Below, in pieces: positions 40,551-57,416 of a stretch of 57,416 bases of DNA (position 1 is the stretch's first letter; the number at the start of each line of letters is the position of its first letter). The position numbers and the translations under genes were made by a program. The notes under the pieces are model-generated. The model was not told where the DNA came from. It worked only from the letters and a program-made list of their open reading frames with translations, and made no database searches. This DNA is from an uncultured Anaerolineaceae bacterium (GTDB lineage: Bacteria > Chloroflexota > Anaerolineae > Anaerolineales > E44-bin32): assembly GCA_964353875.1 (NCBI GenBank), contig CAYGXU010000007.1, positions 1 through 57,416 of the forward strand, written 5' to 3'.

Positions 40551-41297
40551 ATGGAAAATCCAAAGAAATGGTCACTGTCCCCACTCATTCGGATATTCGT
40601 CGTAATCCTGGTATTGGGCGCAGTTGGCCTGAGTGTGATGGCCTTTGCATCGGATGCTGCTATCGATAAAGCGCTCGTCATCCAAGATGAAGAGGATGAG
40701 CCGGACACGCCGCCAGCACCCTTCTTCGGGAGGGGAGGTTTTCGTGGTTTTGGCCATCACGGCTGGTTCGGTCCTGGAGAGGACCTCGATTACGATGCCT
40801 TCCTGGCGGATGCGTTGGGCATCAGCATCCAAACGCTTCAGGAGGCATATGCCGAGGCGAATGCCGCCATGCTTGAGCAAGCCGTAGCTAAAGGCTACAT
40901 CACGGAAGAACAGGCAGAACTGATGAAAGCTCGCCAGGCGCTCATGCAGTATATCGACCGGGATGAGCTCACGGCGAAGGCCTTAGGCATTAGCGTTGAG
41001 GATCTGCAAGAAGCCCGTGAAGCAGATCAATCCCTCTCTGACCTGTTTGATGAACTGGGGCTAAAAGCCTCGGATGTGCGTGAAGCTTTGCAGGATGCCT
41101 ATGAAGAAGCGATTAAGAATGCCGTAAGCGCAGGTGTCATCACGCAGGATCAGGCGGACCAGATAGTGAGCGGCGATTTTGTCGGTCCGATGCTCGGCGG
41201 TCGACGTGGATTTGGCGGTCGCGGAGGGTTTCCTAGAGGCGAGTGCCCCTGTCCATGCGAACCCGATAGCGATACAACGACGGGGACCAGCTTCTAA
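40551..41297 (+). CDS. Membrane-anchored/secreted repeat protein, unknown function
   Basis: 248 aa with an N-terminal TM helix. It has repeated G(Y/V)IT(E/Q)(E/D)QA(E/D) helices, Gly/Arg/Phe-rich stretches and a C-terminal CPCPC. Confidence 0.6.
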   Translation: MENPKKWSLSPLIRIFVVILVLGAVGLSVMAFASDAAIDKALVIQDEEDEPDTPPAPFFGRGGFRGFGHHGWFGPGEDLDYDAFLADALGISIQTLQEAYAEANAAMLEQAVAKGYITEEQAELMKARQALMQYIDRDELTAKALGISVEDLQEAREADQSLSDLFDELGLKASDVREALQDAYEEAIKNAVSAGVITQDQADQIVSGDFVGPMLGGRRGFGGRGGFPRGECPCPCEPDSDTTTGTSF

Positions 41298-41329: not shown

Positions 41330-41361
41330 GCCAGGGGCGCGATCCGGATCGCGCCCCTGGC
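41330..41361. repeat. G+C-rich perfect palindrome (REP-like or terminator stem)
   Basis: GCCAGGGGCGCGATC-CG-GATCGCGCCCCTGGC forms a 15-bp perfect stem. No T-tract follows. Confidence 0.7.
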
Positions 41362-41830: not shown

Positions 41831-43594
41831 TTAATGCCCCAGCCAGACTTCGACATGGTGCTCAGCCTCAGACAAATCCGGCGAGATCAGGTTGCCTGGG
41901 ACGATTTTGCCATCTACCCTCATTTCTACTACGCCCTTACAGACATTCTTCGGATTATGGACGATAATGAGGAATTTCCGACCTCTGAACCTGCGCGTAG
42001 CTGAAAAGCTGCTCCAAGTCGATGGGATGCAGGGGTCGATCCGCAAACCGTCATATTCGGGGTGGATGCCGAGGATCCACTGTGTGATGGCAACATAGTT
42101 CCAGGCCGCTGTGCCCGTCAGCCAGGAATTCTTGGCCTCGCCATGTTTGGGAGCATCGCGACCAGCGATCATCTGGGCATAGATATAAGGCTCGCACTTA
42201 TGGATGTCGCTGATCTCCTCACGCGCCGAAGGGTTGATGCGGAAATAATAATCGTAGGCCTGGTTACCGCGTCCGATCTTGGATTCAGCAATCATGATCC
42301 ACGGGTTGGTGTGGCAAAAAATACCGGCGTTTTCTTTGTATCCAGGCGGGTATGTGGATATCTCCCCTAGATGGAGGTAATAGCGGCTATAAGCTGGTTG
42401 ATGCAAGACGATGCCATGGGAAGTAGCCAATCGTTCTGCCACCGAATCAAGAGCCTGCTTTGCGCGGCCACTTTCGAGGCCCAGACCCGCCATAACGCAC
42501 ATTCCCTGAGGTTCGATGAAAATTTTCCCCTCATTACACTGCCTCGAACCGATCGGGTTGCCATAATCATCGTATGCGCGACGGAACCATTCGCCGTCCC
42601 AGCCTGCTGCCCAAATCGTTTTCTCCATCTCCTGCGCAGCTTTACGAAAGACCTTGGCGTCCTGTTCGCGTTTCTGCCGTGTTGAAATTTCTGCCATTTC
42701 ATTGGCTGCCAGAATGAACATTCCGGCGATGAACACACTCTCGGCGATCTTGCCGTCTTTATTTATCGTCGTCTGGAAGGACTGACCGGGTGTGTCGGAG
42801 AAACAGTTCAAGTTCAGGCAGTCATTCCAGTCGGCGCGGCCTATGAGTGGCAGTCCATGCGGGCCTAAACGGTCAAGTGTGTACTGGATCGCGCGTTGTA
42901 AGTGGCCGTACAGCGGCTCTTCCGTACCGGGACCGTTGTCATAGGGCACAGATTCATCCAGGATGCCATAGTCGCCAGTCTCTTTAATGTAGGCAGCCAC
43001 AGACAACACTAGCCAGAGCGGATCATCGTTGAAGCCGCTGCCCACATCGTTATTGCCGCGCTTGGTCAGCGGCTGGTACTGGTGATATGCGCCGCCGCTC
43101 GGGAGCTGCGTTGCGGCCAAGTCGAGGATGCGTGCGCGTGCTCGTTCGGGGATCAGGTGAACGCAGCCGAGCAGGTCCTGATTAGAGTCACAGAAGCCTA
43201 TGCCGCGCCCTATGCCTGACTCAAAAAAGGATGCAGAACGCGATAAATTGAGGGTGACCATCCCTTGATAGGCATTCCAGATGTTGACCATGCGGTTGGT
43301 GTGCACATCAGGAGTCGAGACCTGAAGTATATCCAGCAGGCCGTCCCAGTAAGCCCGCAGATTCAAAAAGGCCTGCTCAACTTCATCGGCATTCAGGTAA
43401 CGGGCAATGATTGGCAGAACCGTACGCTTGTTGATGATTTGCGAATCAGGAGGGTCGAACTTCTCATCCTGCGGATTTTCATGATAACCAAGGATGAAGA
43501 TGACTTTTCTCTCTTCGCCGCCATTCAGTTGGATTTTAACATGCTGTGCGCCGATAGGTTGCCAGCCGCGGCTTTGACCTGCACTTCGGGGGCG
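41831..43594 (-). pseudogene. 5'-truncated GH94 cellobiose/chitobiose phosphorylase
   Basis: The open frame is colinear with the C-terminal two thirds of GH94 enzymes (GWQPIGAQ..., [38 protein letters not shown]). About 270 N-terminal residues are missing. The frame is closed by TAG at 43595-43597. Confidence 0.8.
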
Positions 43595-54109: not shown

Positions 54110-57237
<3,128 letters not shown>

Positions 57238-57250
<13 letters not shown>

Positions 57251-57414
57251 GCATCCTCCGCTTCTGGGGCGGTTGTCGAAGGATTCTCCCTATCCATAGC
57301 CCATCGTGCGGGATTATCTAGGATATATTGTCGTATGCGCTGAAGAGAGTTTTCGTTTCGTATGATGTGTTCGAAATAATTGCGTTGCCAGACAGATACG
57401 CCAGGGGTATTGCG
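57238..57414 (-). CDS. 3' end of a REP-associated tyrosine (Y1, IS200-like) transposase gene; the 5' part lies outside the window
   Basis: My own translation is ...[38 protein letters not shown]...AWLA*. The WQRNY(F/Y)EHIIRNE...YI..NP..W block is the characteristic RAYT C-terminus. Confidence 0.7.
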
Positions 57415-57416
57415 GT

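Follow-up and report, generated by a model that had tools for sequence, protein, structure and literature searches.

The closest described relatives of the gene considered here are the TnpA_REP proteins of subclass 2.4 (Quentin, Siguier, Chandler & Fichant 2018, PMC6006769), which correspond approximately to Group 4 of the REP-associated tyrosine transposases (RAYTs) of Bertels et al. 2017 (PMC5581495). In the first of these studies, residues W94, Q95, E100, H101 and R104 of TnpA_REP are described as GTAG-guide residues, and a double-foot REP within the gene is given as a feature unique to subclass 2.4; in the second, a role of RAYTs in defence was proposed. Neither paper mentions restriction-modification (R-M) or hsd genes. 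The TnpA_REP of E. coli (YafM/RayT, 4ER8), with its REP/BIME repeats (REPtron), is encoded by a solitary, REP-flanked gene and belongs to subclass 2.2. Unrelated genes are also found embedded in type I R-M operons, e.g. PrrC in the EcoprrI locus, where hsd genes lie on both sides of it.

The window analysed here is a whole contig (C7) of 57,416 nt from an uncultured Anaerolineaceae bacterium, and belongs to a bin of 229 contigs and 3.5 Mb that is 91.6% complete. At its end, the start of a type I restriction gene (hsdR) is overlapped by a reading frame that is cut off by the contig edge (the stub). Judged from its sequence, this frame is predicted to be the terminal (3') part of a RAYT gene (tnpA_REP) of the kind found in subclass 2.4 / Group 4, encoding a single-stranded DNA endonuclease of the HUH/Y1 family. 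Common to this gene and subclass 2.4 are the HUH and Y motifs (the HUH part and the REPs being known here from relatives), the W-Q...E-H..R guide residues, double-foot GT[AG]G...C[TC]AC REPs, and a patchy spread over many phyla. Unlike subclass 2.4 as published, the window and 14 other loci have the RAYT gene inside a type I R-M operon where, with one exception, it overlaps the hsdR start. With the E. coli TnpA_REP the gene shares the Y1 HUH fold (as predicted for a relative), Tyr115 and the five guide residues, but the similarity is at the level of motifs only, a full-length relative giving E = 0.79. Also, E. coli TnpA_REP has REP/BIME repeats, whereas the window has no REPs and its genome only a handful. 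The likeness to embedded accessory genes of type I systems (PrrC, EcoprrI) lies in the presence of an unrelated gene in an hsd operon, co-oriented and tightly coupled; the difference is that the cargo is in this case a transposase-derived HUH nuclease for which there is no PADLOC model, and its defence role is putative.

The contig end and the encoded protein

The features of the locus are collected in Table 1. According to the ORF list and its translation, the stub is a minus-strand frame of 58 codons (ORF 57414..57238) with its 5' end open at the contig edge. The initial annotation had described a 13-nt overlap with hsdR, and all its coordinates proved to be correct, with the stop codon of the stub (TGA) at 57240-57238 and the hsdR start codon (ATG) at 57250-57248; the GGAGG that it had named as hsdR ribosome-binding site is indeed located inside the transposase frame. 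A consensus scan of the 166 nt visible upstream of the hsdR ATG yielded neither a sigma-70-like promoter nor a terminator. The codon of the catalytic Tyr, within RQYILDNP, is at 57327-57325.

Table 1. Positions of the RAYT 3' end, hsdR and associated features in the window
Feature	Position	Strand	Basis or context
RAYT / tnpA_REP-like gene, 3' end, 58 codons and TGA	57238..57416	-	ORF, match to NF047646, identity of relatives
Overlap of stub and hsdR, 13 nt, ATGGCTGGCCTGA	57238..57250	-	RAYT frame W-L-A-stop, hsdR frame M-A-G-L-T
GGAGG, likely hsdR Shine-Dalgarno	57255..57259	-	Within RAYT frame, tail codons A-E-D; 4 nt before ATG
Block W-Q-R-x-Y-F-E-H-I-I-R...Y-I-L-D-N-P in stub	57310..57390	-	GTAG-guide residues W, Q, E, H, R and catalytic Tyr; aligned to 4ER8 residues 92-125 via L020
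hsdR, intact 1046-aa type I restriction subunit	54110..57250	-	Pfam HSDR_N, SWI2_SNF2, T1R_D3-like, T1RH-like_C
Perfect palindrome CCAGGGGCGCGATCCGGATCGCGCCCCTGG	41330-41361		Between convergent ORFs 40551-41297 (+) and 41831-43366 (-)

The stub matches the NCBIfam model for REP-associated tyrosine transposases (NF047646) with 32.7 bits (E = 6e-8) over profile positions 103-133 of 146. Its full-length relatives score 55-67 bits (E = 1e-15 to 1e-18), which is under the equivalog cut-off of 80 bits. A search with Pfam Y1_Tnp (PF01797), as suggested in the initial annotation, gave only noise for the stub alone, the larger part of the domain being off the contig; full-length relatives fall on either side of the 23-bit cut-off (20.3-25.9 bits). 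A scan of GTDB species genomes identified 286 stretches that encode relatives of the stub; together with the NF047646 match, these indicate that the 58-residue frame is not a chance one. Identity of the stub is 71% to the C-terminus of the full-length protein of locus L020 and reaches 86% for L015 (collected loci are designated L). In a motif-level alignment made through L020, the W, Q, E, H and R of the stub align with W94, Q95, E100, H101 and R104 of 4ER8, and its Tyr with the catalytic Tyr115. The profile match and the preservation of the Tyr and all five guide residues support the proposal that the stub encodes the C-terminal end of a Y1/HUH protein of the RAYT type.

Full-length relatives have about 200 residues (190-250) and are characterized by MKYDPERHHRRSIRLKGYDY..AYFVT.CT, VMPNHVHGI, a variable linker and the C-terminal Tyr block. 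The HUH motif (M)PNHxHG is found in 48 of the 48 full-length relatives of alignment A1. An AF2 model of the L020 protein (pLDDT 83.2, pTM 0.78) was compared with known structures by Foldseek, and the top 30 PDB matches were all ISDra2, IS608 or IS200 TnpA or 4ER8 (E 1e-7 to 6e-5); the predicted fold of this relative, on which the comparison was made in place of the stub, is that of a Y1 HUH transposase. The linkers of the relatives between HuH and Y hold in-frame palindromes GTAGGGGC..GCCCCTAC, translated e.g. as VGAGLKPAPT, GFETRPY or GRFANRPY. An IS200/IS605 insertion sequence was also considered and rejected: the gene is present as a single copy in the bin, and scores with the IS200 model NF033573, which has a cut-off of 55 bits, are only 13.7-16.8 bits (E = 0.006-0.055). 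The linkers of some RAYTs (L052:4360-5124, L024:5230-6156 and L144:4318-5010) contain, besides REP palindromes, long in-frame tandem peptide repeats (SGAVTASGAETA..., VGAPLVGAQATRAS..., TTTAEPTPT...), and in L052, L057, L104 and L111 the C-terminal tail, too, has in-frame REP insertions immediately ahead of the hsdR start.

The hsdR gene begins at its first possible start codon, which lines up with the M-x-x-L-T-E-S N-termini of its orthologues. With a GC content of 0.62 and a GC3 of 0.78, versus a GC content of about 0.49 in the rest of the contig, it is compositionally foreign. Composition breaks sharply at the junction, from about 0.6 GC in hsdR to 0.43 in 57301-57400, and the GC3 of the stub is host-like (0.47) versus the 0.78 of the adjoining hsdR. 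Among the 229 contigs of the bin (91.6% complete), no match to PF02384 or PF01420, no orthologue of the hsdM or hsdS of related loci, and no RAYT N-terminus was found. A 32-mer taken from the stub has no exact match in JGI metagenome contigs, and the assembly index holds no record of the exact HsdR protein of the window. A genome of the same genus carries an hsdR with 84% nucleotide identity (G001:C173:1-3525, L176), on a contig that breaks inside the gene; similarity to the window stops about 20 nt past the hsdR stop codon, and the R-M island therefore has different contexts in the two congeners.

RAYT genes in type I operons of other genomes

Loci were gathered in two sets, the first from relatives of the stub and the second by seeding with the HsdR N-terminus, and linkage was called with the HsdR of the window. 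An orthologous hsdR (59-77% identity) was identified directly downstream of the RAYT gene in L019, L020, L026, L029, L044, L052, L057 and L074, to which the seeded set added L094, L104, L111, L142, L144 and L148. In all, at least 14 other loci have a RAYT gene immediately preceding an orthologous hsdR; with the window there are 15 cases, and these span at least nine phyla (Chloroflexota, Nitrospirota, Thermodesulfobacteriota, Bacteroidota, Binatota, Pseudomonadota, Poribacteria, Latescibacterota and Deinococcota). The arrangement is consequently not singular but recurrent, and as far as full-text search shows it is unpublished: a literature search on RAYTs and type I R-M returned irrelevant co-mentions only, and no paper describing the arrangement.

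Wherever upstream DNA is present, the gene order is hsdM-hsdS-RAYT-hsdR, with GTGA or ATGA as the sequence shared by hsdS stop and RAYT start; in L052, L020, L029 and L094, for instance, hsdM/hsdS, RAYT and hsdR follow one another, and the RAYT gene overlaps the end of hsdS by 4 nt and the beginning of hsdR by 13 nt. Over the 15 cases, RAYT stop and hsdR start overlap by 13 nt in nine (window included) and by 4 nt in five, and are 226 nt apart in one. The 13-nt overlap takes the form ATGG......TGA in L019, L020, L029, L052, L094, L111, L144 and L148, as it does in the window. In this class the TGA of the RAYT gene is made by codons 4-5 of hsdR (CTG ACC), and mostly a RAYT tail P-E-D-A-W encodes CCGGAGGAYGCATGG, i.e. 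the hsdR Shine-Dalgarno and ATG. Eleven of the 13 assessable hsdR-linked RAYT genes are intact, the two others (L019 and L044) being frameshifted, and the HUH and Tyr residues are kept in all 11 full-length linked copies. Two of the linked loci contain an hsdS with an in-frame DUF559 (Vsr-like endonuclease) domain (L020:68-1231 and L026:3349-5463), and in L026 and L057 an N-terminal Pol-beta nucleotidyltransferase domain is also fused to the specificity subunit.

The RAYT gene occupies a position that is generally filled by cargo genes. The end of hsdS was located in 64 hsdR-orthologue loci, and in 61 of these the gap between hsdS and hsdR exceeds 600 nt. Co-oriented cargo in this slot includes Abi_C, a ThsB-like TIR together with an 8xMP membrane protein, a KwaB-like protein, DUF4357, DUF3644, 23S_rRNA_IVP, HEPN/MNT pairs and AlbA_2/HATPase_c_4. 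A RAYT gene is found in about seven of the 80 closest hsdR orthologues (about 9%), and is missing from most orthologous operons; these slot frequencies are biased because the loci were picked by similarity to this stub or to this hsdR. Non-RAYT cargo genes, too, have a start that overlaps the stop codon of hsdS and an end that overlaps the ATG of hsdR. The tightness of the coupling is therefore a property of the slot, and not a peculiarity of RAYTs. Throughout the hsdR-orthologue loci L094-L173 the cargo region comprises the 0.6-4.8 kb upstream of hsdR and is almost never empty; some of its unannotated genes, e.g. L095:4342-4989 and L134:2459-3034, may be undescribed defence genes.

Family tree analysis of 61 full-length RAYTs, 11 of them hsdR-linked, shows the linked copies to be scattered over the tree. 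Linkage requires 10 state changes, at least seven of which are forced by well-supported branches, and this is no better than for shuffled labels; the possibility that hsdR-linked RAYTs form a single clade was thereby ruled out. Many RAYT genes classified as unlinked are followed by 5' remnants of hsdR (L016, L017, L024, L027, L047 and L049, with shorter ones in L015, L045, L048 and L155), and in L015 a C-terminal hsdS remnant is fused upstream of the RAYT gene. When these vestiges are counted, 21 of the 61 RAYTs are or were linked, with some clustering (13 changes versus 17.5 for shuffled labels), though numerous transitions are still required. Pairwise divergences of RAYT and hsdR in linked loci are weakly correlated (Mantel r = 0.34, p ~0.01). 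L052 and L148, for example, have hsdR genes that are 85% identical and RAYTs that are only 55% identical, while L094 and L148 share 67% identity in RAYT, their hsdR similarity being at background level. In addition, the GC3 of the RAYT gene is below that of the adjoining hsdR in 10 of 11 linked loci, and in seven by at least 0.14. Discordance of the trees, weak co-divergence and the difference in GC3 together indicate an exchange of the RAYT cassette among operons, for which recombination in the highly conserved hsdS 3' and hsdR 5' flanks would be the most parsimonious mechanism.

Role of the RAYT gene in the operon

We propose that the stub is the end of a subclass 2.4 / Group 4 RAYT gene, whose product would recognise GTAG-footed REP hairpins, and that, in a type I R-M operon acquired by horizontal transfer, this gene would fill the slot for accessory genes that separates hsdS from hsdR. 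By analogy with the relatives, the order in this genome would be hsdM-hsdS-rayT-hsdR, of which only hsdR and the RAYT tail would have been assembled and binned. The tail codons of the RAYT gene supply the likely Shine-Dalgarno and the ATG of hsdR, and hsdR codons 4-5 (CTG ACC) in turn form the RAYT stop codon, as in the other members of the 13-nt class. Translation of hsdR would therefore most likely depend on ribosomes that finish on the RAYT frame or re-initiate once they have left it; co-transcription and translational coupling of the two genes are predicted from the geometry of the junction. The RAYT gene itself would be one of many interchangeable cassettes of the slot, swapped among operons, probably through recombination in the flanks, and would ride as a passenger on a mobile, addictive R-M operon. 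That it is such cargo in a promiscuous slot is what we consider probable. Counting against the operon model, and against an intact RAYT gene in this genome, none of the 229 contigs contains the upstream two thirds of the RAYT gene, hsdS or hsdM.

Counting against the passenger reading, the intact HUH and Tyr residues of the 11 linked copies and the mostly defence-related cargo would fit a selected function equally well. The RAYT could be a working accessory of the defence operon, for instance an ssDNA/hairpin nuclease directed at incoming single-stranded DNA of conjugative elements or ssDNA phages, which type I enzymes cannot restrict, or else a modulator of HsdR dosage. The other occupants of the slot are mostly of a defence type (Abi_C, ThsB-like TIR, KwaB-like, HEPN/MNT and AlbA_2), the guide residues as well as the catalytic ones are intact in the 11 full-length linked copies and the stub, the overlaps with the neighbouring genes are precise on either side, and a defence role has been proposed by Bertels et al. 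2017 (PMC5581495). Nevertheless, this explanation seems rather improbable to us. The low occurrence among the closest hsdR orthologues speaks against it, as do the lack of a PADLOC match for the RAYT and the composition and tree discordance, which point to recent swapping. Moreover, RAYT copies outlast decayed R-M genes: intact RAYTs adjoin hsdR 5' remnants in L016, L024, L027, L047 (which lacks the catalytic Tyr) and L049, and, as far as the shorter remnants read by eye are concerned, also in L015 and L048, so that upkeep of the RAYT is independent of the R-M system. Such survivals, the many orthologous operons that have no RAYT and the lack of a PADLOC match also speak for the passenger reading. 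A general form of the idea, in which subclass 2.4 RAYTs would be recurrent, selected components of type I systems that add a hairpin/ssDNA nuclease or control of HsdR dosage, is in our estimate equally doubtful. It would be of interest because involvement of RAYTs in defence has been a matter of speculation (Bertels et al. 2017): if true, it would give these proteins a concrete and testable role in their hosts, and their repeated presence, coupled to both neighbours, in a slot that otherwise holds abortive-infection, TIR and Kiwa-like genes provides a concrete setting for the defence hypothesis. In the passenger case, the operons illustrate a possible route by which a 'domesticated' transposase, together with its REPs, would travel across phyla on mobile, addictive R-M operons. 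The value of this particular window is limited, with 58 codons visible.

Decay of the gene has to be considered as well. The stub might be a 3' remnant that is kept for the ribosome-binding site and start context of hsdR, in an R-M system perhaps reduced to an orphan hsdR. Two of the 13 assessable linked copies are frameshifted, and 28 of the 89 family copies in the collected loci are without an in-frame HUH part, owing to frameshifts in the REP-bearing linker or to contig ends; the failure to find hsdM, hsdS and the RAYT N-terminus anywhere in the bin would also fit. However, the 58 codons are open and have kept every conserved functional residue, the large majority of assessable linked copies are intact, and in a bin of this completeness foreign high-GC DNA is easily missed during binning, which makes a remnant unlikely, slightly more so than a defence accessory. 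The sharp compositional break raises the question whether the junction could be an assembly chimera, in which the last ~170 nt, derived from the RAYT-hsdR junction of another organism, were joined via conserved sequence; the junction motif is indeed common to many taxa. Low-GC3 RAYT genes beside high-GC3 hsdR genes are, however, found in independent assemblies, including the complete long-read chromosomes L104 and L142, and junction identity between taxa extends over only ~15-20 nt, too short for the usual assembler k-mers. We regard a chimera as very improbable, and a swapped passenger cassette as the preferred explanation.

REPs and other hairpins

The initial annotation had suggested that the RAYT might act on hairpin-bearing repeats of the window and had proposed a comparison of the REP families of the genome with the palindrome at 41330-41361. 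In the 57-kb window no GT[AG]G-footed REPs were identified beyond two matches at chance level. The palindrome occurs only once in the genome and its foot is CCAG/CTGG in place of GTAG; most likely it represents a hairpin of the terminator type and no REP. Being unique and without a GTAG foot, it does not provide the proposed link between the RAYT and the repeats of the window, and both it and the island repeats were rejected as REPs of this RAYT.

The REPs of the genome are located on other contigs. A small double-foot family GTAGGGGCGGGTTT..AAACCCGCCCCTAC is present at C5:1-510, C8:144, C22:5032-5125 and C113:4022-4340; of its four or five loci, two are located at contig ends. These could be the cognate REPs of the RAYT of the window, for which they are candidates. 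Genomes that host other linked RAYTs contain from 2-3 up to 113 such REPs. At C5:1-510 the REP-like palindromes are arranged in an array of units of ~75 nt that begins at the contig end.
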